This document shows, piece by piece, positions 32,315 to 62,984 of a DNA stretch of 64,000 nucleotides; position 1 is the stretch's first letter, and each line of letters starts with the position of its first letter. A program made the position numbers and the translations under genes. The notes under the pieces were generated by a model that searched no databases, had not been told where the DNA came from, and saw nothing but the letters and a program-made list of their open reading frames with translations. The DNA is taken from positions 43,998-107,997 of the forward strand of contig CAWHTP010000007.1 of assembly GCA_963832285.1 (NCBI GenBank), given 5' to 3'. The stretch comes from an uncultured Cytophagales bacterium. GTDB taxonomy: Bacteria; Bacteroidota; Bacteroidia; Cytophagales; Cyclobacteriaceae.

Positions 32315-32989
32315 ATGGAACTAAAGAAAAATCCGAAAGCGGATGTAAATAAACAATCAACCTTATTTTTAAATATCGGGTTGGTTATTTCATTGGGCTT
32401 AACTTTTGCTGCTTTTGAGTACAAGAGTTATGATGATGGACCTGCAATGGACTTAGGTCAGGTGGAAGATAACATGGAGGAAATAATGGAGATTCCGCCA
32501 ACGGAGCAGCCGCCACCACCACCGCCAAAGGTGCAGCTTCCTGAAATAGTGGAGATTCCTGATGAGGAAGAGATAGAAGAGGAAATTGATATTGACCTTG
32601 ATTTGGACATGTCTGAAGATACTGAGATAGCAAATATCATTTTTGACGATGATCCGGGTGAAGAAGAAGTTGATCAGATTTTTACCATTGTTGAGCAACA
32701 AGCAGAGCCTAAAGGAGGTATTCAGGCCTTTTACGATTTTGTGCAGAAGAACCTGGAGTATCCCAGACAAGCTTCCAGAATGGGCATTGAGGGTGTAGTT
32801 TATGTGCAGTTCGTAATAGAGAAAGATGGCTCTTTAACAGATGTAAAAGCCGTTAAGGGTATTGGTGGAGGTACTGATGAAGAAGCGGTTAGGGTTGTAA
32901 AATCAGCACCACAATGGAACCCCGGAAAGCAAAGAGGTAGAGCGGTACGTTCGCAGCGTGTAATTCCTATCAGATTTACGCTCAATTAG
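32315..32989 (+). CDS. energy transducer TonB
   Basis: N-terminal TM, a Pro/Glu-rich spacer (EQPPPPPPKVQLPEIVEIPDEEE) and a C-terminal domain GIEGVVYVQFVIEKDGSLTDVKAV... Confidence 0.85.
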   Translation: MELKKNPKADVNKQSTLFLNIGLVISLGLTFAAFEYKSYDDGPAMDLGQVEDNMEEIMEIPPTEQPPPPPPKVQLPEIVEIPDEEEIEEEIDIDLDLDMSEDTEIANIIFDDDPGEEEVDQIFTIVEQQAEPKGGIQAFYDFVQKNLEYPRQASRMGIEGVVYVQFVIEKDGSLTDVKAVKGIGGGTDEEAVRVVKSAPQWNPGKQRGRAVRSQRVIPIRFTLN

Positions 32990-33010
32990 AATAGCTTTAG
33001 ATTGATATTG

Positions 33011-33044
33011 AAGGCGTTTATGTATAACATAAACGCCTTTTTTT
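33011..33044 (+). terminator. rho-independent terminator of tonB
   Basis: 12-bp stem AAGGCGTTTATG / CATAAACGCCTT with a 5-nt loop, followed by a T-run. Confidence 0.8.
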
Positions 33045-33078
33045 ATGGATAATATCTTAGTGTTACCCTGTTTGAATT

Positions 33079-33216
33079 GCTAAGAGTAGCAATAAGGTCG
33101 GTACGTTGAAAACGTCAGACCTGCTTGGTGATTGTAAAGCAAATCGTTTTGTTAATGGTGCCTTGAGCAAACACCATGTCTGACCTCTACTAGGTACCGA
33201 CATTAGGCAGGTTGAG
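33079..33216 (+). ncRNA. candidate structured ncRNA, unit 1 (unknown family)
   Basis: Nested inverted repeats. P0 is GCTA-AGAG-TAGC. P1 pairs GTCGGTAC (33097..33104) with GTACCGAC (33194..33201). P2 is the hairpin ACGTT-GAA-AACGT. P3 pairs GTCAGAC (33114..33120) with GTCTGAC (33178..33184). Two further hairpins are GATT-N8-AATC and ATGGTG-N11-CACCAT. The strand is inferred only from promoter-like boxes in the spacers. Confidence 0.4.
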
Positions 33217-33285
33217 CAAGCCGTGGCCACGAAATCTTGAGTTGCTAACTTCCTATTATTAGTAAAATTGTAATTGATATAGATC

Positions 33286-33423
33286 GCTACTTATAGCAAT
33301 AAGGTCGGTACGTTGAAAACGTCAGACCTGCTTTGTGATTGTTAAGCAAATCGTTTTGTTAATGGTACCTTGAGCAAACACCATGTCTGCCCTCTACGAG
33401 GTACCGACATTAGGCAGGTTGAG
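33286..33423 (+). ncRNA. candidate structured ncRNA, unit 2
   Basis: Same architecture as unit 1. It is preceded by GTTG-N18-TAAAATTG (the -7-like box is at 33263..33270). The P0 loop changes to CTTA while the stem is retained. Confidence 0.4.
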
Positions 33424-33492
33424 CAAGCCGTGGATACGAAATTTTGAGTTGCCATCTTCCTATTATTAGTAAAATTGTAATTGATATAGATT

Positions 33493-33630
33493 GCTATTTA
33501 TAGCAATAAGGTCGGCACGTTGGAAACGTCAGACCTGCTTGGTGATTATACAGCGAATCGTTTTGTTAATGGTACCTTGAGCAAACACCATGTCTGACCT
33601 CTACGAGGTACCGACATTAGGCAGGTTGAG
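33493..33630 (+). ncRNA. candidate structured ncRNA, unit 3
   Basis: Same architecture. It is preceded by TAAAATTG at 33470..33477. The P0 loop is TTTA and the GATT/AATC hairpin loop changes to ATACAGCG while the stems are retained. Confidence 0.4.
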
Positions 33631-33688
33631 GTAATCAAAACAATCCAGGATATATCTTCCCATTTGATTACTTGATTAAATAAGTAAC

Positions 33689-33707
33689 CCGATAAAATTG
33701 TTATCGG
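33689..33707 (-). terminator. possible terminator of the DUF1343 gene
   Basis: CCGATAA / TTATCGG stem with a 5-nt loop, 24 nt downstream of the stop on the minus strand. The following tract is only moderately T-rich. Confidence 0.35.
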
Positions 33708-33730
33708 AAAACGCACCAATAGCATGCTAC

Positions 33731-34921
33731 TTAGTCTTTGTACAATAAATATTGCTTTCGCATGGCTTTGTATGCTGCTAAATCAGCTTGCCAGCTTAGT
33801 TTAATATCTTCTTCAGAAAAACCTGATTCAATTTGTTTTCTCAATGTCTCATTACCGGCTAGTTTGGTAAAAAATGTATTGAAAAATGCCGGCTTATCAG
33901 GAAATGTATTGTAGAAGTCAATGAGGTAAGTAAGATTAAAACCTTCCTGATATGGTTTGCTATCGAAGAAAATGCCGTAGCAGGTCTCATTTTCGAGCGG
34001 AGGATACTTCGCCCCCTCTGTACTAACCGGCAGAAAACTCTGCCTATAATGATCTTCCAATGCAGGATGTCCTATTTGTTGGAAAGGCTTGTCCGTTCCT
34101 CTGCCTACACTTATAACCGTTCCTTCAAAAAGACACAATGACGGATAGAGTGCAATACTTAAGTCGTTCGGCAAGTTGGGCGAGGGCTTTATAGGCAGAC
34201 TGTATTTCATCTGATGATTATAGTTTTTGACAGGAATTACAGTTAAATCGCAGCTCTGACTATTCTCCAACCATCCCTCTCTATTAATCATTTGGGCAAG
34301 CTCGCCTACTGTTAAACCGTGCAATAGGGGTATTTGGTGCATCCCCACAAATGATTGGTACTGTAGGTCCAAAACAGGCCCTTCCACATACATGCCATTT
34401 GGGTTTGGCCTATCAAGTACAATAAAGCTTTTATTATTTTCAGCACAAGCTTCCATCACATAGTGCATGGTGCTTATGTATGTATAAAACCGGACGCCTA
34501 CATCTTGTATGTCAAAAACAACGAGGTCAATATCAGCCAGCATTTCAGTTGAAGGTTTTTTATTTTTTCCATAAAGAGATAGAATGGGTAAGCCACTTTT
34601 TTCGTCAATACCATTTTTAATGATGGCCCCGGCATCGGCCTTTCCTCTAAAGCCATGCTCAGGTGCAAATACTTTTTTAATCGTAACGCCTAATGCTAAA
34701 AGACTATCAACTAAGTGTGTAGTGCCAATGGTTGATGTCTGGTTTACTACCAGTGCCACATTTTTGTTTTCAAGCAGGGGTAAGTAAGCTTCCGTTTGCT
34801 CAGCAGCCAAGATAATATTTTCTACTTTTTGTGAAATGCAGCTGCTATGTATTAATAAAAAAAATAGCACAGTAAGCATCAGTTCTTTACTAATGATATT
34901 GTAATTTGCCAATTGTATCAT
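33731..34921 (-). CDS. DUF1343 domain protein (NamZ-like exo-beta-N-acetylmuramidase family)
   Basis: VALVVNQTS...VFAPEHGFRG..., DLVVFDIQDVGVRFYTYISTM and VLDRPNP motifs. The start was trimmed to MIQLANY... at 34921. Confidence 0.75.
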   Translation of the reverse strand: MIQLANYNIISKELMLTVLFFLLIHSSCISQKVENIILAAEQTEAYLPLLENKNVALVVNQTSTIGTTHLVDSLLALGVTIKKVFAPEHGFRGKADAGAIIKNGIDEKSGLPILSLYGKNKKPSTEMLADIDLVVFDIQDVGVRFYTYISTMHYVMEACAENNKSFIVLDRPNPNGMYVEGPVLDLQYQSFVGMHQIPLLHGLTVGELAQMINREGWLENSQSCDLTVIPVKNYNHQMKYSLPIKPSPNLPNDLSIALYPSLCLFEGTVISVGRGTDKPFQQIGHPALEDHYRQSFLPVSTEGAKYPPLENETCYGIFFDSKPYQEGFNLTYLIDFYNTFPDKPAFFNTFFTKLAGNETLRKQIESGFSEEDIKLSWQADLAAYKAMRKQYLLYKD

Positions 34922-34943
34922 AAAGTAAAAATAGCAGTTATTC

Positions 34944-36161
34944 TTGAATTTACCTGATTTTATAGCCAAACGAACCATAAATGCAAAGGGTGGAGCGTTT
35001 TCCGGAAGCATTTATAGAATTGCCGTAAGCAGCGTGGCTATTGGCTTGGCTGTCATGCTTGTGTCTATCCTAATATTGGGTGGCTTCCGTCAGGAAATTG
35101 CCAATAAAATTTATGGTTTTACCGGCCACTTGCAAGTATCCAAATATACCTTGACAAACTCATTTGAAACTTCCCCCACCACCACGGATAGCGACTTTTA
35201 TCACAATTGGCACGAGCTGGATTACCTACAAAACGTACATGTTTTTGCTTATAAGGCGGGTTTGCTTAAAGCGAAAGAGGCCGTAGAAGGTGTTATTATT
35301 AAAGGTGTAGGGCTCGATTTTGATACCCTTAGCTTTAATCAAAACCTGATAAAAGGCAGATTCCCTATATTAGATACTGAAACCTATTCAACAGAGGTAG
35401 TGATTAGCCAGAAGCTAGCCAATCTTTTGCAAATTAGGCTTCGTGACAAAGTGCTAATGTATTTTGTGCAAAACCCACCACGTTACAGGCAATTGACGGT
35501 TACAGGAATATTCCAAACCGGATTGGAGGAATTTGATGAGCGGATTATTATAGGGGACATTAAAATGATACAGCGACTCAATGATTGGGACGATGACCAG
35601 GTAGGGGGCTATGAGGTTTTTTTGAAACCCGGAGCAAATCATGAGGAGGCTGAACTAGCAGTTTTTGATAAGGTAAATACAGACCAGTTTGTGAATAGTA
35701 CTAAAGAACGTTATAGCCAATATTTCGAGTGGCTGGACTTGTTGAATCAAAATGTGAGGGTTTTTTTGGCACTCATTCTTTTTGTGGCTTGCTTTAACAT
35801 GGCCGCGGTGCTTTTTATACTAATTATGGAGCGCACTAATATGATTGGTCTGCTGAAAGCTGTAGGTGCCGACAACGGCTTAATCAGAAAAATATTCTAT
35901 TACAGTGGTTTAAGGTTAACATTGCGGGGTATTATTTATGGCAATGCACTGGCACTAGGCCTGGCCTTTGTGCAGTATCACTTCAAAATAATTCCGCTCG
36001 ATGCGGAGAACTACTATATGAGCTTTGTTCCAATTCTCTGGGATTTTAAAGCCATATTGATAATTAACTTCTCGGTATTTATTTTAATTGGATTGGCCTT
36101 AACCCTGCCTACTTTTTTAGTAACCGGAATGAAACCAATTAAAGCTATTAAATTCGATTAG
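34944..36161 (+). CDS. ABC transporter permease, LolC/E (FtsX-like) family
   Basis: N-terminus (M)NLPDFIAKR... with an apparent TTG start, a large periplasmic MacB-like loop and a C-terminal FtsX region with 3 TM segments. Confidence 0.8.
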   Translation: MNLPDFIAKRTINAKGGAFSGSIYRIAVSSVAIGLAVMLVSILILGGFRQEIANKIYGFTGHLQVSKYTLTNSFETSPTTTDSDFYHNWHELDYLQNVHVFAYKAGLLKAKEAVEGVIIKGVGLDFDTLSFNQNLIKGRFPILDTETYSTEVVISQKLANLLQIRLRDKVLMYFVQNPPRYRQLTVTGIFQTGLEEFDERIIIGDIKMIQRLNDWDDDQVGGYEVFLKPGANHEEAELAVFDKVNTDQFVNSTKERYSQYFEWLDLLNQNVRVFLALILFVACFNMAAVLFILIMERTNMIGLLKAVGADNGLIRKIFYYSGLRLTLRGIIYGNALALGLAFVQYHFKIIPLDAENYYMSFVPILWDFKAILIINFSVFILIGLALTLPTFLVTGMKPIKAIKFD

Positions 36162-37907: not shown

Positions 37908-38943
37908 ATGCATTCAGCTGATGAAAAATTTATGTTTCGTGCTATTGAGCTTGCCAAATTAGGAAGACCAACATGCAGCCCGAACCCCATGGTAGGCTGT
38001 GTTATTGTGCGGCAAAACCAAATCATAGGAGAGGGGTGGCACAAAAAAGCGGGTGAGCCACATGCCGAGGTTAATGCCATTAATGCGGTTGAGAATCCTA
38101 ATGAGCTATCTGAAGCTACTGCCTATGTTACATTGGAGCCATGTGCCCATGTTGGCAAAACTCCGCCTTGTGCCGATTTACTTATACAAAAGGGATTAAA
38201 AAAAGTGGTAATAGGTTGTACAGATCCTAACCCGCTTGTGGCAAGCAAAGGGATTAAGAAATTAGAAGATGCCGGTATAGAGGTAGTGGTTGGCTTTTTA
38301 AAAGCGGAGTGTGTTTCGCTTAATGAAATCTTTTTTCATTCCATACAACACCACAGACCTTATGTGGTGTTAAAATGGGCACAAACTGCAGATAATTTTG
38401 TGGCGCGGACAAACTACGACTCAAAGTGGATAAGCAATGAGCAGTCGCGGCAGTTGGTTCACAAATGGCGGAGTGAGCTTGATGCCATTTTAGTGGGCAA
38501 AAATACGGTCTTATATGATAACCCTTCCTTAACCACTCGAGAGTGGGCAGGTAAAAATCCGCTAAGGGTAGTTATTGATCATAAACTCGCGCTAGATTCA
38601 TCGTTCAAATTATTTGATTGTTCCACAACAACTTTGATTTATAACGAGCTGAAATCGGAAAGGCAGAAGGGCTTAGAATATATAAAAATTACCGGTGCTC
38701 ATTTTTTGGAAAATTTATTAGACAAGTTTACACAATAGAAATATACGCTCGTTGTTAGTGGAGGGCGGTACGCATACGTTGCAGCAGTTTATTGACAGCG
38801 GCTTTTGGAATGAAGCCCGGATTTTTACCGCTCAAAATACATTTGAGGGAGGGATTGCTGCCCCTGAACTTAGCAACAAAACACTCGTTGCAAACCATAC
38901 TGTTGGCAGCGACCAATTGACAATCTATAAAAAAATAGCATAA
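37908..38943 (+). pseudogene. ribD: bifunctional riboflavin biosynthesis deaminase/reductase RibD, split by an apparent 1-nt insertion at T-run 38727..38729
   Basis: Deaminase motif HAEVNA...EPCAHVGKTPPC. ORF 1 ends ..LLDKFTQ*. The next frame reads LHNRNIRSLLVEGGTHTLQQFIDSGFWNEARIF, the expected RibD reductase C-terminus. Deleting one T restores ..LLDKLHNRNIRSLLVEGG... Confidence 0.85.
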
Positions 38944-42745: not shown

Positions 42746-43780
42746 TTATTCATTGGCTTTTCTGATCATAAAGTCAACAAAGGTTTCTCCACTAGCATCT
42801 TCATAATCTCCGTAGTAAGCCACATTGGGGATACCCAACTTGTCCGCATAAGACTTTAGTGTGCGTACATGATACGCATGGTGATTGGCCACATTTGATT
42901 GCGTAGGCTTTACGAGGGGTGTCTGCGGATTGGAGGCCCAAAACTCAGGATCATCAGAACTCATTTTAGCCAACATATCCACTTTGCTTCTATAGGTTGT
43001 GATGCTGTCAGTATAAAACTCATCGAAATCATTAATACCGTAGAAAGATTTGAAACGTGGTTTCATATCAGGATCTTCTTTAAAATATTGTTTCCACGTA
43101 AAATTATATTCTTTAAAAATATCTGTTTCATAGCGTAATAAATCATATGATGCTTGGGTAGCCTTTACCGCTAATGCTTTTACTCTGGTTGATTCACGCA
43201 ATACCGGATCATTGCTTAATGGTTTGGCCATGTCATCTGAAAATGCCAGCCATTGGGCAGTACCGGCTCCTGCCGAGCTGCCTGCGAGTATGATGTTGTT
43301 TTTATCAATGTTTAGTGTCGTACTGATTGACCTAATATATTGAAGACATCGTTTGCTGTCGTTTAATGATTTCCATACACCTTCTTGGTCACCCTTAAAA
43401 GCCAGCAGCCTGTAATTAATGGTGGCGAAGGCAATCTTATTTGCTAATAAAGTTCGTATTTCAGCGGGGAAATCCCAGCTGCCGGTCCACATTACCTCAT
43501 AAGGATTCTCTTTTTGGCCACCTAAAAAGCCGCCTCCATGAATGTAAATAACTAATGGTGTAGGTGTTTCCGAGGCAGGTAGAAAGATGTCAAATACATT
43601 TCTCTCTCCGCTGTCGTAATTGATGTCCGGAGCAAAAGAGGCTTCTATCCCTTCCAAATCTATGGGAGAGTCACTCAAAGTGAGCGTTGGCTGCGGAATT
43701 TCTTGACCGCTCAGTTCCGAACCATCTTTACAAGATTGAAGCAGTAGTAAGGCGATAAAAAGTGTTGTTATCTTATGCAT
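42746..43780 (-). CDS. alpha/beta-hydrolase lipoprotein (carboxylesterase/lipase type)
   Basis: The lipoprotein signal is LLLLQSC. The oxyanion motif is IHGGGF and the nucleophile elbow is GSSAG. Confidence 0.8.
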   Translation of the reverse strand: MHKITTLFIALLLLQSCKDGSELSGQEIPQPTLTLSDSPIDLEGIEASFAPDINYDSGERNVFDIFLPASETPTPLVIYIHGGGFLGGQKENPYEVMWTGSWDFPAEIRTLLANKIAFATINYRLLAFKGDQEGVWKSLNDSKRCLQYIRSISTTLNIDKNNIILAGSSAGAGTAQWLAFSDDMAKPLSNDPVLRESTRVKALAVKATQASYDLLRYETDIFKEYNFTWKQYFKEDPDMKPRFKSFYGINDFDEFYTDSITTYRSKVDMLAKMSSDDPEFWASNPQTPLVKPTQSNVANHHAYHVRTLKSYADKLGIPNVAYYGDYEDASGETFVDFMIRKANE

Positions 43781-43903
43781 AACGATGGTGTTTTAGTTCA
43801 TTGGACGCTTAAAACATGAAAAAGTTTAATATGTGTTGAAAGTTTTTTTTATTTAGGATGCGATATCGTTTAGATAAGTCCAAGGCACTACGAAAATTTC
43901 TGG

Positions 43904-44012
43904 AATGACTCACTTCATTATTTACCACGTCATTCTCCGAATTCCACAAGGAATTCTAGGAGAATCTGTTGGTTTACAATGGCTACGAACATTAGTGAGA
44001 TTCCGACAAAAA
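43904..44012. repeat. REP/MITE-like intergenic repeat, direct copy A
   Basis: An element of about 109 bp, AATGACTCACTTCATTATTTACCACGTCATTCTCCGAATTCC..GAATTCTAGGAGAATCTGTT.., that repeats at 44188. Confidence 0.8.
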
Positions 44013-44062
44013 GACCTCGCTTATGCAGCCGTTGTTTATGGACTGAAGTACTTTACTGCATT

Positions 44063-44118
44063 AGATTCCCCTAGAATTTCCTCCGCGCATCTGCCCACGC
44101 CAAATTCGGAGAATGACG
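44063..44118. repeat. inverted partial copy of the same repeat core
   Basis: AGATTCCCCTAGAATTT...CAAATTCGGAGAATGACG is the reverse complement of the CGTCATTCTCCGAATT...GAATTCTAGGAGAATCT core, with a longer central insert. Confidence 0.7.
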
Positions 44119-44187
44119 AGCTTTGGTTGTTAATTTTCGAGGAATTTTCTTAGAATTGCCAATTCGCACAGCTACACCAATGGATTG

Positions 44188-44296
44188 AATGACTCACTTC
44201 ATTATTTACCACGTCATTCTCCGAATTCCCCAAAGAATTCTAGGAGAATCTGTTCATTTGGAACAGCTACGCATTTCAATAGAGATTCCGCATAAA
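44188..44296. repeat. REP/MITE-like intergenic repeat, direct copy B
   Basis: Near-identical over its first ~75 nt to copy A, 284 bp upstream, and more diverged at the 3' end. Confidence 0.8.
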
Positions 44297-44301
44297 AACG
44301 C

Positions 44302-44685
44302 TTAAGCTGAAACAAGTGAAGTATCCAATTCTTTAAGTTGCTTAATAATTAACGATTTTAGCTGGCTAAGGCTCAGCTTATTCATGGTGTCAGCATCTAT
44401 CCAGACCGAGATTTTATCCTCTTGCTTTATAAAAACAGCCGGGAGCTTTTCATCTATATTGTACTGCTGCTCCCATTCATCTTTGTGCAAGAAGGTGAGC
44501 GGCAGGTTGAGTGTTTTTTTAAACGCTGCCCATTCTTCTTTAATTGAAAATGTTCCGTAGGTGATTGCGCAGAGGCTGCATGGATAGGTGGAAGGCGAGA
44601 ATATTTTATGTGCCATATCCAAATAAGCATTCCACTTACCGGAATCGGCATTGTAAACAAAAATTAGTTTAGGAGAATTTTTCAT
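44302..44685 (-). CDS. hypothetical small protein with a CxxC motif (thioredoxin-fold-like?)
   Basis: 127 aa, LIFVYNADSG..., with CSLCAITYG. I recognise it as a recurring conserved hypothetical family but cannot name it. Confidence 0.55.
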   Translation of the reverse strand: MKNSPKLIFVYNADSGKWNAYLDMAHKIFSPSTYPCSLCAITYGTFSIKEEWAAFKKTLNLPLTFLHKDEWEQQYNIDEKLPAVFIKQEDKISVWIDADTMNKLSLSQLKSLIIKQLKELDTSLVSA

Positions 44686-44799
44686 AGGTATAAGTATAAA
44701 CGTAGACCATTCGGATTTGGTAACCTTACAGATGTTGCAACCAGGATGGTCGTTGCAGGAAAAGCTGAGTTTTTAGCGAACGGCTTTCTGTACTTATCT

Positions 44800-45069
44800 T
44801 TAATAATGAAATTTACATTGAATTATTATACACAACTGATCTTCACCTTCCTCTCCTGAAACACGATAAACAAGGCGATGTTCCTTTGTAATTCTTCTAG
44901 ACCAGTAGCCCTTAAGCTCATGTTTAAGAGGTTCTGGTTTACCAAGCCCACCAAAGGGCGATTCGTTGATAGAAGCAAGAAGCAGATCAATTTTTTTTAA
45001 TATGCTAACATCCTTTTGCTGCCAAAATTCGTACTGTTTGCGAGCCGTTTTACTGAATGCAAATTTCAA
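44800..45069 (-). CDS. yoeB: Txe/YoeB-family toxin (mRNA interferase)
   Basis: 89 aa with LKGYWSRRITKEHRLVYRV, the YoeB signature. It sits immediately downstream of the antitoxin, with abutting coordinates. Confidence 0.85.
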   Translation of the reverse strand: MKFAFSKTARKQYEFWQQKDVSILKKIDLLLASINESPFGGLGKPEPLKHELKGYWSRRITKEHRLVYRVSGEEGEDQLCIIIQCKFHY

Positions 45070-45339
45070 TTATTCTGTGAAAACCCCTTTTTTCAGATCA
45101 AAAGGATGGGTTTCCATCAATTCAGCCTCCTGTATTGATTTTCTTATTTCTTTTCTATTTGCTTCTGTAGAAAGTAGATGAGCTGTTTCTACTAAACTAT
45201 TGTACGCTGCATAAGACAAAATCACCAATGCATCATTTTCCTTTTTTCGGGAAACAACAATCGGATGCTTGGATTTAGAGGCGCTATCAAAATACTTCTT
45301 AATATTTTTTCTGAAGAGCGTTGGGGTTATGTGTTTCAT
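45070..45339 (-). CDS. yefM: Phd/YefM-family antitoxin
   Basis: 89 aa with a YefM-like N-terminus (..FRKNIKKYFDSA..PIVVSRK..ALVILSYAAYNSLVETAHLL). Its stop abuts the yoeB start. Confidence 0.8.
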   Translation of the reverse strand: MKHITPTLFRKNIKKYFDSASKSKHPIVVSRKKENDALVILSYAAYNSLVETAHLLSTEANRKEIRKSIQEAELMETHPFDLKKGVFTE

Positions 45340-45376
45340 AGTCGAAGATACTCATAAATTTTAAATTTTTAAAAGC

Positions 45377-45413
45377 TATCACCTGTCAGATTTTTGAAAC
45401 CTGACGGGTGATA
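45377..45413 (-). terminator. rho-independent terminator after susD (end of the long minus-strand transcription unit)
   Basis: 13-bp stem TATCACCTGTCAG / CTGACGGGTGATA (one G-U pair) with an 11-nt loop. On the minus strand it is followed by GCTTTTAAAAATTT. Confidence 0.6.
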
Positions 45414-45433
45414 AAACATATCAAACAAAACAA

Positions 45434-46885
45434 TCAATCTTTTTCCCACCAGCCTTTGCTGTTGATGTTATCGCCTCCAATTCTTGCAGCTGCTTCCTCA
45501 TAATTAGCTGCATTAGTGGCCTGCTCCGATTCCGGGTAGAAGTAACGTACCGGATATCTACCATCGTTCACAGCATCGGGTCCTGCTACTATTGTCGGTA
45601 TGCCGGTTCTTCTGATGTTGAACCAAGCCTCGTGGCCTATGTTAATTAAACTCAACCATTTCTGAGTCATTATTTTGGTGATATTATCCGATCCATCTAG
45701 GGCAACGGCCGTTCTTGTGAAGTAATCTGCCGGCACGGTAACGCCATAATACTCGAAGCTCGCAGCAATACCATTTTCATAATAAGTCTGTGCATTTCCG
45801 CTGATGTAACCTCGTTCTGCGGCTTCGGCTAAGGCAAATTGTACCTCGGCATATTGCATAAACTGTGCATCCACACCATCGGGAACATCTCTGAAGATTG
45901 AACCGAAAAGAGAAAGCTTGGGGATAGAGAGCGTTGTATCCTGTGCAATGGTTTCTCTACTCTGTCCATTTCTTACTCCTCTGTACTCTACTGAATCTGT
46001 GCCGATGCTTCGTTGGGTAGGCTTGTAATACACACCAATTCTTGGATCATCCAAAAGTGTTAGCACTGAATCTACGGTGAAAGTCATTACATGCTCATCG
46101 TTAGCGCCTGACGAGGCCAGAAAGAACGGAAATTGGTTAGGAGCGGTGGACAGAAAAGGCAAAACGGCATTATCGGAATTAGCTTGCATAAGCTTTCCGC
46201 TATTAGCCAGTTGCTCCAATTCTGAAAAATCTGTAAGGCGCTTGCTTATCCTCAAAAGGTATCTTAATCGCAATGAATTGGCAAATTTTACCCATTTTGA
46301 TAGGTCGTTTCCAAACATTACGTCACCCCGAATAGGAGCATCGGTACTTTCCAATGTGGTAGCCGCAGCCTTCAGAACAGCAAGAATACCTGTTTCAGGA
46401 TCGGTGTAAATACTTTCCTGCGTATCGTATTTGGGCGTTACAATTCCCTCCTCTAAAGAAATAGCTTCGCTGTATGGCACATCATTCCACATATCGGTAA
46501 GTTGAGAGGAGATGAAAGCCCTCAGTATATCGCCAACGGCTATGTACGCTTCATTAGACGCTTCAGCTTCTTTCATCGATTTGATATCCTGAAGGTTGCT
46601 AAAAAGGTTGTTCCAGTAGGTACCGTTAGAACCGATGATATATCTGTCGAAATCGCCAAAGTCGATGGCTGCAGCAAAATGTGCGAAGTAGTTTGATTGA
46701 TCAAAACCTTGCGTATAGGTATTCCGCTGTATCAGTTCGGTAATTACGTTGGTTAGCAGAAACTCCGGCTCTACTGTTTCCGAAGAATTTTTGTTTTTAT
46801 TGATCTCTTCGAAGTCATCTGTGCAGGAGAAGGTAAATACCATCATTGCCGTTAATAACAGAAAGTATTTTTTAGTATTTTTCAT
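45434..46885 (-). CDS. SusD/RagB-family nutrient-binding outer-membrane lipoprotein
   Basis: Lipoprotein signal ..MMVFTFSC. It lies directly downstream of a SusC-like gene, and the C-terminus ..KGWWEKD is typical. Confidence 0.85.
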   Translation of the reverse strand: MKNTKKYFLLLTAMMVFTFSCTDDFEEINKNKNSSETVEPEFLLTNVITELIQRNTYTQGFDQSNYFAHFAAAIDFGDFDRYIIGSNGTYWNNLFSNLQDIKSMKEAEASNEAYIAVGDILRAFISSQLTDMWNDVPYSEAISLEEGIVTPKYDTQESIYTDPETGILAVLKAAATTLESTDAPIRGDVMFGNDLSKWVKFANSLRLRYLLRISKRLTDFSELEQLANSGKLMQANSDNAVLPFLSTAPNQFPFFLASSGANDEHVMTFTVDSVLTLLDDPRIGVYYKPTQRSIGTDSVEYRGVRNGQSRETIAQDTTLSIPKLSLFGSIFRDVPDGVDAQFMQYAEVQFALAEAAERGYISGNAQTYYENGIAASFEYYGVTVPADYFTRTAVALDGSDNITKIMTQKWLSLINIGHEAWFNIRRTGIPTIVAGPDAVNDGRYPVRYFYPESEQATNAANYEEAAARIGGDNINSKGWWEKD

Positions 46886-50188: not shown

Positions 50189-50866
50189 TTATGAAGAACT
50201 ATTCGGGCAAGGTGGGCCTCTTAAATAATGCAGAGGAGCGAAAATATCGCTCACCAAAATCCTTAGAAAAGGTTTAGTAATTTTAGTATCGTTGGCAAAC
50301 AGCCTTTGATAGAATTGCGCTAAAGCGCTAAATGGATTTTTGGCAGCAAAGCGCTGTAACGAATTGATCGAATCCAGATCATTAAGTATCGGTAGTTTAT
50401 AAATTTCACTATGCTGTTTGTCAAAGTATTGCCGGAGTGATTTACACAGGTAGTTTTTCTTCCAAGGCAGCTGCTTAAAAGTGACTAGATCAAACTGCGA
50501 CCGGTTCAATGCTAATAGGTAAATTCCGCCATCTGCAGCTGGACCGCAAACCACTTGTTTTCCTGATAATTTTTCAACTGCCTGCTCTATTAACTGACTG
50601 GATAGATCAGGGCAATCATTGCCTATTGAAACTATGTTATCATACCCCAAGTCAAAAGTAGCTTGTAAAGCATTTCCATATTTCTCACCAAAAGAATTGC
50701 CGGCCTGCTTCTGCTCGTTAATCCAGATGAGATCAAGCTTTATAGTTTTTGCAAGCAATCTGGTTTCGTCAGTCAGTTGCTCAAATAGTAGCTCATTGGC
50801 TCTTTGTCTATTTCTAATAATTTTCTTCTTGCTTGCCTCCGTTTGGGGCGACAAGGAAAATACCAT
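50189..50866 (-). CDS. DUF2064-family (TIGR04282-like, GT-A/nucleotidyl-transferase fold) protein, paralog 2
   Basis: LMVFSLSP.., QKQAGNSFGEKYGNALQATF, SIGNDCPDL, GPAADGGIYLLAL and QLPW motifs. The start was trimmed to M65 (50866) so that it no longer overlaps the radical SAM gene. Confidence 0.7.
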   Translation of the reverse strand: MVFSLSPQTEASKKKIIRNRQRANELLFEQLTDETRLLAKTIKLDLIWINEQKQAGNSFGEKYGNALQATFDLGYDNIVSIGNDCPDLSSQLIEQAVEKLSGKQVVCGPAADGGIYLLALNRSQFDLVTFKQLPWKKNYLCKSLRQYFDKQHSEIYKLPILNDLDSINSLQRFAAKNPFSALAQFYQRLFANDTKITKPFLRILVSDIFAPLHYLRGPPCPNSSS

Positions 50867-50888
50867 GAGGGCAGTATTTGAACCTTTC

Positions 50889-51845
50889 TTAATTGGCACT
50901 TTCAGATTGTATGATTGGCCTCTGTTTTTGAATATCGTAGTGCTTGGTGAAAAACTCATCGCACCAAAGGCATACATTATTGAGTTCTTTGGCTCTTTTA
51001 AGTCCTTCGGCTGCGGAGATTCCAAGGCTTTCACCCATTCCGTAAGCATCACCTTCATTGAGCTTGCGCATCACTTCATGTTTTGACATGCGTTGTAGCA
51101 CATCCTCCACTTTATCCACTCTGGCATCTCCCATGGCTTTTACCGTGCATGGGCAGCAAGGATTTATGGCCCAAAGCTGTATGGAAATTTCTTGTGTTAT
51201 ATCCGCCTCTTCATTCCCTAAAAAACCGATGGCTCCGGAAGGAATTGAGCAAAAGTTATGCGTGCCGTCTTTTTTCCAGATGTCGTGCTCCATGGCTCTG
51301 CCGCGTGCCCAGTTTCCACCGAGCCACATATCTTCTGTTGCACCAAAAAAGCCAAAAGTGAGTTCTTTTCTGGAGTTATTTTGTAATTCAGATTGTGTTA
51401 AAGCCGGCTGTCCTTCAATATATTTTATCCCGTGGGAGGTAAATAATTCCGATAAAGCATCTTTGCGTTCACCTTGTTTTTTATGGTATCGGTCAATGCT
51501 GGCAATAGAAAAACGGTCAACTCCCTTTGCTTTTAAGGTTTCCAGAATGTCTGCCGTTAATAAGTCGCCATTAAATTGAAGTGCTACATATAGTTTATTG
51601 CCATATTTTTCTTTCAGCCTGTCCAGGATCTTATAAAGCAGCTGCTTTTCGGCTAATGGTTCGCCACCGCTAAGCGTTATACGCTCCATGCCTGCCGGAA
51701 GGTTCTCAATTATGGCCATGCAATCGGCTTCGGACATGCGCTTTCCCTTAGGGCCGCTGTTGTTGTAGCAGTGGATGCACTGGTCGTTGCAGAGTTGGGT
51801 AAATACCCAGTAGATACGATCTATTTTGGAAAAATCATTCTTCAT
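50889..51845 (-). CDS. radical SAM protein with a C-terminal Cys-rich region (subfamily unknown)
   Basis: CX3CX2C cluster CNDQCIHC followed by ..GP.., the SAM-binding motif LSGGEPL, and C-terminal cysteines in NPCCPC and CLWC. Confidence 0.8.
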   Translation of the reverse strand: MKNDFSKIDRIYWVFTQLCNDQCIHCYNNSGPKGKRMSEADCMAIIENLPAGMERITLSGGEPLAEKQLLYKILDRLKEKYGNKLYVALQFNGDLLTADILETLKAKGVDRFSIASIDRYHKKQGERKDALSELFTSHGIKYIEGQPALTQSELQNNSRKELTFGFFGATEDMWLGGNWARGRAMEHDIWKKDGTHNFCSIPSGAIGFLGNEEADITQEISIQLWAINPCCPCTVKAMGDARVDKVEDVLQRMSKHEVMRKLNEGDAYGMGESLGISAAEGLKRAKELNNVCLWCDEFFTKHYDIQKQRPIIQSESAN

Positions 51846-57504: not shown

Positions 57505-58203
57505 TTAGTAAATAGGGGGAGCCCTTAAACCAACGAAGCGGACTGCTGCAATAGATATGAAGTGCCTTACTCTGGCACGAGTTTTAAGTATAAAATTATG
57601 AAGTAACTGATTGAGGAGCCTCGAAAAGCTATTGATACCATCCGCAAGATGTTGTGAGCGAAGAAACAGCACGATATCGCATCGCGTATTCACATCTCTT
57701 TTTTTGTCGAGTACAAGCGGCTGATTATTTTTGTTGAAGTGCCCTAATAATTCATTATACAGTTTGTTTGATTGCCACGGTAGCTGCTCAAAGCTTTGCT
57801 TATTAAAATGTGCTTGGTGAACACCAATAAGGTAGGCACCTCCTCTTAAATTAGGGCCAATTACTGACTTATTATCCTGTAGTTTTGTAAAAACTTCATT
57901 CCAGCTTATGGATTGCCAATCGAAAAAATCGTTGCCTAAAGCAACTACAGATTTGTAGCCTTTACGGTAAAGCGCCTCAAAAGCGTTAGCTAATTTTTCG
58001 CCAAATGAGTTGCCTTGCTGCCGGTGTTCATCAAAAATATAAATAGGCTTATTAAGTTTCTTGAGAAACGAGGCAGAGGAATTAATAAGCAACTGCGCTA
58101 AGTCATAATCTTTTTCGGCATTGCCGGTCCAATTCTTGTGTTTGGATTCCAGCTTTGCCGATCGGCTAAAGAATAATATGGCTGTTTGCTCTTTTAAACT
58201 CAC
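57505..58203 (-). CDS. DUF2064-family (TIGR04282-like) protein, paralog 1
   Basis: AILFFSRS.., RQQGNSFGEKLANAFEALY, ALGNDF, GPNLRGGAYLIGV and QLPWQ motifs. Apparent GTG start. Confidence 0.7.
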   Translation of the reverse strand: MSLKEQTAILFFSRSAKLESKHKNWTGNAEKDYDLAQLLINSSASFLKKLNKPIYIFDEHRQQGNSFGEKLANAFEALYRKGYKSVVALGNDFFDWQSISWNEVFTKLQDNKSVIGPNLRGGAYLIGVHQAHFNKQSFEQLPWQSNKLYNELLGHFNKNNQPLVLDKKRDVNTRCDIVLFLRSQHLADGINSFSRLLNQLLHNFILKTRARVRHFISIAAVRFVGLRAPPIY

Positions 58204-61059: not shown

Positions 61060-61700
61060 TTACAAGTTAAAGATTAGACTTTGTAGTAAATTAGCTTCTA
61101 AGCTTGTTGCTTGTTCCTTATTGCATTGCTTTAATCCAAATAGTTTATAACAAATGAGCCAACTCCTCTTTTCACTTGTTTTTTTCATCTCATGATGTAT
61201 AAGCCAAAACGTGAATAAATTCATGCAAAGGAACGAGTAAAAATGCAATGGCTAATACATAAAAAGTACGTATAATACCTTCTCCAAATGGTAGTTCATA
61301 ATTTTTATGTACAATAAATAGCGGATAGTTTGGATATGTCAAATTCAAGTTTCTATATTTGAGCATCATATCGGAAGTATCCGATTTATACAGAAGAGGT
61401 AAGAGATCAGGCTCTATGATCCTCTGGCAACCGCCAAAAAATGCGCAACGCATAAGGAAAGGTGCCAATTCCTGCCCAATGAAGGGACATATAAAACGGC
61501 AATGCTATGAAAAATCAAATAAAACACATTCGCACAACACAGCAATCAGAAAACTCTTTTCTTGTTGTCTCAATTCCTTGTAATCCTACAGTTCGCATGG
61601 CCGGCACTATTGCTTGTTGCAACTGCTGTTGTTGATTTTCATTAAATCATTCTCCCACAAGGCTCACTTCAATGTAGAGAAGCGTTGAATAGCCAGTCAT
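61060..61700 (-). pseudogene. possible degraded membrane metallopeptidase-like gene (HExxH), broken across at least three frames
   Basis: The minus-strand pieces are FFIALPFYMSLHWAGIGTF.., then ..IIRTFYVLAIAFLLVPLHEFIHVLAYTS*, then ..WLICYKLFGLKQ.. They lie in different frames and are separated by stops. The family guess (DUF3267-like) is weak. Confidence 0.3.
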
Positions 61701-61811
61701 AATTTTTTGATTGTCTTCAGGAGAACATCACAACATAATCTACTCATACTTACGAAAACCCCTTCTTTAAAAAAAGAAGATTCCAATTACAGAAAAGCAT
61801 ATCTATATAAA

Positions 61812-62984
61812 ATGTCGCAACATTTCGAAACACAAGCCATAAGAACACAAGCCGCTAAAAGCGGTAACAGAGAGCATTCGGTGCCGCTTTATCTTACATC
61901 TTCCTTCACTTTTGAAAATGCTGAGCAAGCTAAAGCATTGTTTAACGATGAAGAGGAAGGGAACATTTATTCACGCTTTTCTAATCCTAACAGCTCAGAG
62001 TTGATTGACAAGATTGCCCTGCTGGAAGGCGTAGAAGATGGTATTGCAACTGCCACCGGCATGGCAGCCATGTTTGGAAGTATGGCTGCACTTTTACGGC
62101 AGGGGGATCATATTTTGGCAGCCCGTTCTTTATTTGGCTCCACGCATCAGCTACTAACGCAGATTTTTCCACGCTGGGGCATCACACATACTTATGCGGA
62201 TATTAGCAGGACGCATGAATGGGAAAGCTTGATTAAGCCGGAAACGAAAATGATTTTTGTGGAAACTCCTTCAAACCCAGGGTTAGAAATTATTGACCTA
62301 GAATGGCTAGGGAAGTTGGCAAAAGCGAATAACCTCATTTTAGTGGTTGATAATTGCTTTGCCACACCGTACCTGCAGCAACCCGCAAAATGGGGAGCGC
62401 ATATTGTTACACACAGTGCTACCAAATTTATTGATGGACAAGGAAGAGTTTTGGGCGGCTTGATTATGGGCAGCAAGGAGTTAATTAAAGAGGTACGCTT
62501 TTTTAGCCGACATACAGGACCTGCTATTTCGCCATTTAATGCATGGATGCTATCCAAAAGCCTCGAAACATTGGTAGTTCGTATGGACAGACACTGCGAA
62601 AGTGCATTAAAAATTGCTGAATACCTTGAAGGACATTCAGACCTGGAAAGCGTTAAATATCCATTCCTGAAATCTCATCCGCAGCATGATTTGGCCAAAA
62701 AGCAAATGAAATTGGGCGGTGGCATCCTCACATTTATTGTAAAAGGCGGGGCAGAGAGAGCTAGCAAGTTTATCAATCAGTTGAAGACTATTTCTATCAC
62801 CTCCAATTTGGGCGATACACGGTCAATCGTTACTCATCCGGCCACCACCACGCATAGTAAACTCAGTGCTGAGGAAAGAAAAAATGTAGGAATTGCTGAC
62901 GGATTGATCAGGTTATCTGTAGGGCTAGAGCATATAAACGATATTATTGAAGATGTAGAACAAGCTTTAAAAGCATCGGAATAA
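61812..62984 (+). CDS. PLP-dependent O-succinyl/O-acetylhomoserine sulfhydrylase (MetZ/MetY trans-sulfuration family)
   Basis: MSQHFETQAIRTQ..REHSVPLYLTSSFTF.., GNIYSRFSNPN, and the PLP-lysine motif HSATKFIDGQG. The start was trimmed from 61707. Confidence 0.85.
   Translation: MSQHFETQAIRTQAAKSGNREHSVPLYLTSSFTFENAEQAKALFNDEEEGNIYSRFSNPNSSELIDKIALLEGVEDGIATATGMAAMFGSMAALLRQGDHILAARSLFGSTHQLLTQIFPRWGITHTYADISRTHEWESLIKPETKMIFVETPSNPGLEIIDLEWLGKLAKANNLILVVDNCFATPYLQQPAKWGAHIVTHSATKFIDGQGRVLGGLIMGSKELIKEVRFFSRHTGPAISPFNAWMLSKSLETLVVRMDRHCESALKIAEYLEGHSDLESVKYPFLKSHPQHDLAKKQMKLGGGILTFIVKGGAERASKFINQLKTISITSNLGDTRSIVTHPATTTHSKLSAEERKNVGIADGLIRLSVGLEHINDIIEDVEQALKASE

Follow-up and report, generated by a model that had tools for sequence, protein, structure and literature searches.

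The DNA considered here is a 64,000-nucleotide (nt) stretch of contig CAWHTP010000007.1 from an uncultured member of the Cytophagales, near Marivirga and Fulvivirga; we refer to this whole stretch as the window. Our subject is a tandem repeat array that takes up most of the 741-bp gap between two convergent genes, tonB and namZ. Both are housekeeping genes, and the 3' ends of both face the array. A first-pass annotation of the same DNA, made from its letters alone, had placed the repeats between convergent genes and after the tonB terminator, and this placement was borne out (tonB terminator at 33010..33040; 3' end of namZ). A terminator scan showed that the tonB terminator is strong and forms a 31-nt perfect palindrome, while the stem of the hairpin found at the end of namZ has 8 bp, only 3 of which are G-C pairs. 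The features of the locus, in window positions, are as follows.

32315..32989, plus strand: tonB (Pfam TonB_C)
33010..33040, plus strand: intrinsic terminator of tonB, a 14-bp stem followed by a T run; left limit of the intergenic region
33076..33630, unstranded: whole array, 2.67 copies of a 207-bp unit, delimited by Tandem Repeats Finder (TRF), ungapped alignment and blastn of unit 2 against the window
33079..33216, unstranded: core 1, 138 nt, an imperfect palindrome or rod-like hairpin with 2 unit-specific substitutions
33217..33285, unstranded: spacer 1, 69 nt, AT-rich and unstructured, with 6 differences from spacer 2
33286..33423, unstranded: core 2, with 3 unit-specific substitutions, including an uncompensated break of helix P3 (column 105)
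33424..33492, unstranded: spacer 2, delimited by the alignment
33493..33630, unstranded: core 3, with 5 unit-specific substitutions; homology ends at 33630
33688..33708, minus strand: terminator-like hairpin of namZ, weak; right limit of the intergenic region
33731..35011, minus strand: namZ (NamZ_N/NamZ_C)

TRF reported a repeat with a period of 207 at 33087..33630 (2.6 copies, 94% matches, 0% indels, score 969), the only large tandem repeat that it found in the window. To compare the copies, the units were aligned without gaps in a 207-nt phase (33079-33285, 33286-33492 and 33493-33699). Units 1 and 2 were homologous across their full 207 nt, whereas unit 3 was homologous in its first 138 nt only, past which identity dropped to background. 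Three 138-nt cores therefore alternate with two 69-nt spacers, and not with three. Thus, of the earlier description of three 207-bp tandem units, the exact period stands and the completeness of the third unit does not. Read from the sequence, the left edge of homology lies at 33076 and not at 33079. The two spacers are identical at 63 of 69 positions; the similarity of either flank to the spacers was not significant (P of about 0.06 at best) and did not go beyond what control intergenic DNA gives. The longest open reading frames (ORFs) touching the array encode 59 and 55 amino acids (aa), in agreement with the earlier statement that neither strand holds an ORF of at least 60 aa. We confirmed that the three-copy repeat, with the complementary segments described for it, is real.

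Each core is a long imperfect palindrome in which 12-bp outer arms (TAAgGTCGGTAC/GTACCGACaTTA) and 7-bp inner arms (GTCAGAC/GTCTGAC, the helix called P3) are separated by a symmetric 9x9 internal loop, with small hairpins lying within the inner arms. Viewed as terminal inverted repeats, TAAgGTCGGTAC and GTACCGACaTTA match at 11 of 12 positions and enclose 113 nt with no ORF. The dinucleotide TA borders AGGTCGGTAC...GTACCGACAT on both sides, which carries no weight as a target-site duplication in AT-rich DNA. The first-pass annotation had proposed the same nested helices in every core, and we found that 96% of the pair cells held standard pairs, vs. 23-43% when the partners were slid by 1-3 columns. 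It had also drawn a short stem, P0, as GCTA-N4-TAGC; the stem is present, but its true length is 7 bp (ATTGCTA-N4-TAGCAAT) in units 1 and 3.

33076..33093, unstranded: P0 palindrome of unit 1, ATTGCTA-AGAG-TAGCAAT
33283..33300, unstranded: P0 palindrome of unit 2, ATCGCTA-CTTA-TAGCAAT
33490..33507, unstranded: P0 palindrome of unit 3, ATTGCTA-TTTA-TAGCAAT

The helices of the consensus core are all purely Watson-Crick and strand-symmetric. This consensus contains five perfect inverted repeats with a length of 6 bp or more, compared to 1.7 in dinucleotide shuffles (P = 0.02), and their summed length also exceeded that of the shuffles (P = 0.008). The consensus core had fold z-scores of -3.4 on the plus strand and -2.8 on the minus strand. 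Among the single units, unit 1 reached -2.8 on plus and -4.2 on minus, whereas the values of units 2 and 3 lay between -1.5 and -1.7. Spacer 1 gave +0.6 on the plus strand and +1.5 on the minus strand, indicating that the spacers are unstructured, and the whole intergenic region gave -5.0 on the minus strand vs. -3.6 on the plus strand. We conclude that the hairpin architecture is moderately beyond chance.

The fold drawn in the first-pass annotation had an energy of -26 to -30 kcal/mol, compared to minimum free energies (MFEs) of -37 to -41. On the plus strand, both the RNAalifold consensus and the MFE structures of units 2 and 3 selected a fold other than that one, containing the following helix.

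33118..33130 and 33201..33213, plus strand: arms of a 13-bp alternative helix (RNAalifold pairs 40-52 with 123-135, with four G-U pairs; also in the MFE structures of units 2 and 3)

This helix, for which the same columns are present in units 2 and 3, competes with helices P1 and P3. It also changes how the pseudoknot proposed earlier between ACCTGC and GCAGGT is to be read: the pairing is there, but it need not be a pseudoknot, since it overlaps P3 by 2 nt and forms the core of the 13-bp alternative. In the same plus-strand fold, a G-to-A change at column 82 makes GGTACC, which pairs with AGGTACC. On the minus strand, the RNAalifold consensus kept the P1/P3 rod in all three units and lengthened the ATGGTG hairpin to 9 bp by way of G-U pairs. 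Judging from these predictions, three folds over two strands fit the data about equally.

The cores vary at 14 of their 138 columns. Divergence is star-like, with no homogenization, and outside the P0 loop the private changes number 2, 3 and 5 in units 1, 2 and 3, respectively. Compensatory changes were absent from all three folds considered, in a comparison of three copies and 14 variable columns. The caveat entered earlier that three stem substitutions are uncompensated proved correct (columns 24, 82 and 105). Two of these, T>C at column 24 and G/A at column 82, are transitions; read on the minus strand they give U-G or G-U pairs, and on the plus strand A-C. The third, A>C at column 105, breaks P3 on both. 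The wobble-compatible transitions hint at the minus strand, although such a pattern would arise by accident one time in four. In the structure drawn by the first-pass annotation, 3 of the 14 variable columns are paired, against about 7 expected (binomial P about 0.03), but the variation had already been seen when that structure was drawn, and P becomes about 0.1 once the four P0-loop columns are counted as one event. For the RNAalifold fold of the minus strand, half of the substitutions (5 of 10) fell in paired columns, which equals the chance expectation.

The variable positions concentrate in two hairpin loops of the core. At P0, unit 1 differs at 3-4 of the 4 central bases, compared with a background of 6%, yet the 7-bp arms are retained, a pattern that fits an RNA hairpin and a palindromic protein-binding site equally. 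If the array were a set of DNA binding sites, the 18-bp palindromes (33076, 33283 and 33490) and the other inverted repeats would serve as operators for a dimeric protein that leaves the N4 center uncontacted. The conserved 7-bp half-sites around a varying center, the strand symmetry of the helices and the position of the palindrome just downstream of a promoter-like motif (see below) are all consistent with operators. However, both neighboring genes end here, so that neither flank offers a regulator or a regulated gene; the unit 2 half-site is broken (ATCGCTA), the 113-nt nested palindrome, at 33093..33205 in unit 1, is left unexplained, and no comparable sites occur elsewhere in the window. 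We therefore think it quite improbable that the array is a set of operators.

We searched for relatives of the array in several collections. A search of 32950..33760 against Rfam 15 gave no match at the gathering scores, in line with the earlier remark that the core resembled no known RNA family; relaxing the threshold to E<=10 added nothing but chance matches (11-27 bits), and the highest-scoring of these fall on the tonB terminator and not on the cores. Other copies were found neither in the window nor among some 100 kb of syntenic sequence from relatives when these were searched by blastn (with unit 2 in the case of the window) and with a covariance model built from the three cores. Plasmid and phage collections gave no blastn match at word size 11, and a plasmid or phage origin was rejected on this basis. 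Genomes and metagenomes were scanned with a single 18-mer, GTACCGACATTAGGCAGG, which spans the junction between the inner palindrome and the flanking bases; only chance matches of 18-24 nt were found in 185,579 GTDB species genomes and the JGI metagenomes, a scan that copies of the inner palindrome alone would escape. Four internal words compared with the IMG/VR viral contigs returned nothing, or matches that were unrelated beyond the word itself. The earlier proposal to collect homologues of the core for a covariation test thus came to nothing, as the window, the syntenic loci of relatives, the plasmids, the phages and the word scans supplied none. General literature searches for tandem structured RNAs in Bacteroidota found nothing relevant.

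The surrounding gene order, sprA-gcvH-vanZ-tonB> <namZ-ftsX-SDR-prmC, is kept in the closest relatives, whose NamZ proteins are 72-73% identical to that of the window; no relative exceeds 73%. In these genomes, a gene for a MASE1-HisKA-HATPase sensor kinase lies between namZ and tonB, and this gene is absent from the window at 32990..33730.

Locus L004, 6303..8051: MASE1 histidine-kinase gene of a relative, between namZ and tonB
Locus L007, 6303..8021: MASE1 histidine-kinase gene of a relative, between namZ and tonB
Locus L016, 7219..8937: MASE1 histidine-kinase gene of a relative, between namZ and tonB

In more distant relatives, namZ is followed by pgi (L018) or by hypothetical genes (L019); throughout the family, synteny breaks on the 3' side of namZ. 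Since other genes occupy its slot in relatives, the array sits at a synteny break and is lineage-specific.

We also examined the intergenic region for transcription signals. The -7 box of the Bacteroidota sigma-A promoter is TAnnTTTG, located at -12..-5 (PMC9723704). The window contains 12 occurrences of the strict motif TTG-N17-21-TAnnTTTG, four or five of which lie directly upstream of genes or of a SAM riboswitch, indicating that the motif is informative in this genome; the riboswitch and sprA are two examples of real starts marked in this way. The riboswitch, a SAM-I element at 61383..61497 on the plus strand (70 bits, above the gathering score), has the strict motif upstream at 61330..61361 and, downstream, a gene for a pyridoxal phosphate enzyme of Cys/Met metabolism at 61707..62984 on the plus strand. 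Within the array, a relaxed form of the motif was found in each spacer.

33242..33270, plus strand: promoter-like TTG-N18-TAAAATTG of spacer 1, a relaxed -33/-7 match; predicted start near 33275
33449..33477, plus strand: promoter-like TTG-N18-TAAAATTG of spacer 2, a relaxed match; predicted start near 33482

The predicted starts presume that the box lies at -12..-5. Both motifs end 13 nt before the P0 palindrome of the core that follows, core 2 or core 3, and nothing resembling them was found upstream of unit 1. The first-pass annotation had seen in the spacers a promoter close to the consensus, so that each unit could be its own transcript; TTG-N18-TAAAATTG is indeed present on the plus strand of both, but the match is relaxed and not close, and unit 1 has no such motif. 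A third TTG-N18-TAAAATTG match, at 33672..33700 on the plus strand, falls within the namZ terminator hairpin and points antisense into namZ; its resemblance to the spacer motif was not statistically supported. The minus strand of the array contains a single poor -7-like box with no -33 element. The terminator scan detected no intrinsic terminator after any unit on either strand, the only ones being those of tonB and namZ, outside the array. Consequently, plus-strand transcripts would run antisense into namZ, and minus-strand transcripts would need read-through from namZ. Complementarity to 40 gene starts in the window was no better than that of shuffled sequence.

These signals bear most directly on the reading given by the first-pass annotation, in which the array is a plus-strand tandem cluster of small RNA (sRNA) genes, with a promoter in each spacer, starts near 33275 and 33482 and a trans-acting product of about 140-200 nt. 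Such an RNA would fold as the P0/P1/P3 rod or as the alternative with the 13-bp helix, and unit 1 would either lack a promoter of its own or be transcribed by read-through. We consider this reading unlikely, but it remains a serious rival because the cores fold better than chance, P0 retains its stem while its loop changes and the promoter-like motifs are there. The relaxed motif precedes P0 by the same 13 nt in both spacers, and its strict form marks real starts in the window. The consensus z-score of -3.4 and the excess of inverted repeats, the contrast between structured cores and unstructured spacers and the gathering of variable positions in two hairpin loops are all compatible with an sRNA, as are columns 63 and 82, which are A-U/G-U exchanges in the plus-strand RNAalifold fold. 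An intergenic position between convergent genes is also typical of sRNA genes. On the other hand, no core is followed by an intrinsic terminator, and the transcripts would enter namZ in antisense; unit 1 lacks a promoter, and the -7 box of the spacers departs from TAnnTTTG. Moreover, the two plus-strand folds are mutually exclusive and the MFE structure varies by unit, there is no covariation, no homologue was found at the syntenic site of relatives or in the other searches, and the complementarity to gene starts offered no sign of targets.

Multicopy and tandem sRNAs have been described in Listeria (LhrC1-5; PMC4132741) and in Pseudomonas aeruginosa (PrrF1/PrrF2; PMC2851614, PMC10597452), and the array shares with them near-identical, head-to-tail intergenic units of about 100-200 nt. 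In these systems each copy may have its own promoter; the array has a relaxed motif before cores 2 and 3 only. Read-through of the PrrF tandem yields a longer RNA, PrrH (PMC2851614, PMC10597452). The LhrC and PrrF sRNAs each have a Rho-independent terminator, are conserved across strains and species, carry defined seeds and are expressed; the array, in contrast, has no terminators, no promoter at its first unit and no seed or target signal, and it is absent from the syntenic site of relatives.

In a stronger form of the RNA reading, the cores would constitute an undescribed, lineage-restricted family of structured small RNAs, present in multiple copies with their own Bacteroidota promoters. 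Such RNAs might switch between the P1/P3 rod and a fold in which the 13-bp G-U helix is joined by the GGTACC helix, and their recent source would be a palindromic DNA element located where relatives carry a sensor kinase. We regard this proposal as rather doubtful. The checks run on the array as a structured noncoding RNA produced no positive evidence for it and no refutation.

A function on the minus strand was also considered. Here the cores would be structured modules within a 3' extension of namZ, made by read-through of its weak terminator, or parts of an independent minus-strand RNA; they could act as stabilizing or processing hairpins or as protein-binding sites, with the tonB terminator hairpin as the end point of the transcript. 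The weakness of the namZ terminator (8-bp stem, 3 G-C pairs) would permit this, and several of the folding results point the same way: the RNAalifold consensus that keeps the rod in three units and extends the ATGGTG hairpin to 9 bp, the z-score of -4.2 for unit 1, which has its best value on this strand, the value of -5.0 for the intergenic region against -3.6 on the plus strand, and the two of three stem-breaking transitions (columns 24 and 82) that are wobbles on the minus strand and A-C mismatches on the plus. However, the consensus z-score of -2.8 is no better than that of the plus strand, the two wobble-compatible transitions have the one-in-four chance of accident given above, and the poor -7-like box has no -33 element to support it. 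There is likewise no covariation and no conservation in relatives, and we judge a minus-strand function to be improbable. As to the strand of any function, the promoter-like motifs favor plus and the wobble transitions favor minus.

We tentatively favor the explanation that an intergenic segment containing a palindrome was recently amplified in tandem within this lineage, no RNA function being required, while holding that it falls somewhat short of probable. A DNA palindrome would be expected to have Watson-Crick, strand-symmetric helices and a symmetric 9x9 loop, as the consensus does. The two strands are about equal in how well they fold, and several folds compete; covariation is absent, three stem breaks are uncompensated and divergence is star-like. 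Amplification is further favored by the lack of a terminator at every unit, the lack of a promoter at unit 1 and the relaxed form of the spacer motif, and by the absence of the array from relatives, its position at a synteny break and the failure of our searches to return an Rfam family or a homologue.

In such an amplification, unequal recombination or replication slippage would have multiplied a 207-bp intergenic segment, the first roughly 145 bp of which are the imperfect palindrome and the rest an AT-rich linker. The event would have taken place at a rearrangement-prone junction downstream of namZ, after which the three copies would have diverged independently (2, 3 and 5 private substitutions). 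The hairpin potential would have been inherited from a palindromic DNA element, which may have resembled a miniature inverted-repeat transposable element (MITE), a repetitive extragenic palindromic (REP) sequence or an ERIC element, or may have been a former hairpin, and any transcripts would be incidental. The repeat with its limits, the palindrome, the lack of covariation and the absence of related sequences from the collections searched are direct observations, whereas we infer both the mechanism of amplification and the neutrality of the array.

Several observations weigh against neutral amplification. Cores 2 and 3 have a promoter-like motif upstream at a suitable spacing, and the consensus core both folds better and has more inverted repeats than shuffled sequence. 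Substitutions are mildly depleted in the stems drawn by the first-pass annotation, although this effect is lost when the P0 loop is counted as one event. That the P0 stem has been kept while its center was almost completely replaced in unit 1 suggests that a hairpin or a palindromic binding site has been under selection, and the persistence of three 94%-identical copies without deletion or indels could also reflect selection. Finally, the dispersed copies that a MITE or REP origin predicts were not seen, in what was a weak search.

The array resembles multicopy sRNA loci, ERIC- or MITE-like palindromes and minisatellites, and it has the full set of defining features of none of them. ERIC, Correia/NEMIS, BOX, REP/BIME and MITE sequences are intergenic imperfect palindromes with tens to hundreds of dispersed copies per genome. 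Like ERIC, REP and MITE elements, the cores are imperfect palindromes of about 110-150 bp that lie near terminators, with terminal inverted repeats, a rod-like predicted hairpin, strand symmetry and no covariation. Those elements insert as single units or mosaics, in contrast to the 207-bp head-to-tail arrangement with homologous linkers seen here, and the array has no second locus in the window or at the loci of relatives, although the wider searches could miss copies of the inner palindrome. Bacterial minisatellites, or variable number tandem repeats (VNTRs), such as mycobacterial MIRU, typically have units of about 10-100 bp. The array shares with them a small number of head-to-tail intergenic copies, a strict period, slight divergence and, probably, a variable copy number; it differs in its longer unit (207 bp) and its large nested palindrome. 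Type III antitoxin RNAs (ToxI) consist of repeats of about 34-40 nt directly upstream of the gene for a toxin endoribonuclease and are processed to unit RNAs. The array is likewise made of tandem repeats, but its unit is 207 bp and its neighbors are convergent housekeeping genes. To our knowledge, Bacteroidota lack Hfq and ProQ, and few of their sRNAs have been characterized.

If the cores are expressed, the locus would be a young, species-restricted, multicopy sRNA locus and could show a palindromic DNA element becoming an RNA gene. If DNA duplication alone is at work, the array would mark a rearrangement-prone junction downstream of namZ and could serve as a VNTR-like locus for strain typing; in that case, it would also illustrate that nested stems shared by a handful of near-identical repeats are no proof of RNA structure.

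A number of other identities were tried and rejected. Known Rfam families (riboswitches, ribozymes, sRNAs and leaders) gave no match at the gathering score or at E<=10 that covered the cores beyond chance, and repeats of self-cleaving ribozymes (hammerhead, twister) were dismissed because no ribozyme family appeared up to E=10 and neither strand has a CUGAUGA box. A CRISPR array does not fit spacers that are homologous to each other (63/69) or a repeat of 138 nt. The 207-bp unit, together with neighbors tonB and namZ that both end at the array, rejects a type III toxin-antitoxin RNA array, while integron attC sites and ribozyme satellites have the wrong neighbors and their motifs are absent. 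As a decayed coding repeat (207 bp being 69 codons), the unit has stops in all frames, and the best frame (minus strand, frame 1) contains 4, one of them common to units 2 and 3. The peptide from the sole ORF that spans a core had no real homologue in collections of 5.8 billion and 1.8 billion proteins, and an exact look-up of the 59-aa ORF gave no match. Boxes like TTATCCACA with at most one mismatch number 16 in the window, against 17.4 expected, and one lies near the array, which speaks against an oriC or DnaA-box cluster. No tRNA or tmRNA was found in the whole window, blastn and tblastx showed no similarity to the histidine-kinase gene of relatives, of which the array might have been a relic, and the flanking genes scanned for a mobile-element or reverse-transcriptase context are housekeeping genes.

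We also considered whether the assembler could have expanded a one- or two-copy locus, or strain variants, into three copies. The source appears to be a metagenome-derived contig, and no independent assembly spans the array: Logan contigs of ERR12040027 with identical tonB and SDR genes end at about window position 33030 or are too short. The contig that ends there (L001) stops inside the tonB terminator palindrome, probably because the de Bruijn graph breaks at it, and so gives no evidence on the repeat; the 31-nt perfect palindrome would be explanation enough for the break. A frameshift in ribD, elsewhere in the window, may be an assembly indel. Against an artefact, each copy has private substitutions and the 207-bp phase is exact, and assemblers usually collapse tandem repeats instead of expanding them. 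We regard an assembly origin of the copy number as very unlikely.

The ribD gene itself (37908..38937, plus strand) is frameshifted near 38725..38765. The 344-aa RibD of a relative aligns in frame 3 over its aa 1-287, and the alignment continues in frame 1 with aa 273-343. The split gene is either a pseudogene or the product of an assembly indel error, and a T6 run lies close by. Farther along the window, the 1.65 kb at 43780..45434, between an esterase-like and a SusD-like gene, contain only short ORFs (127 aa or less). Two DUF2064 paralogues are encoded near each other on the minus strand, at 50189..51058 and 57505..58203; one adjoins a radical-SAM gene, and the other adjoins a cluster of ABC-transporter and nucleoside-hydrolase genes.

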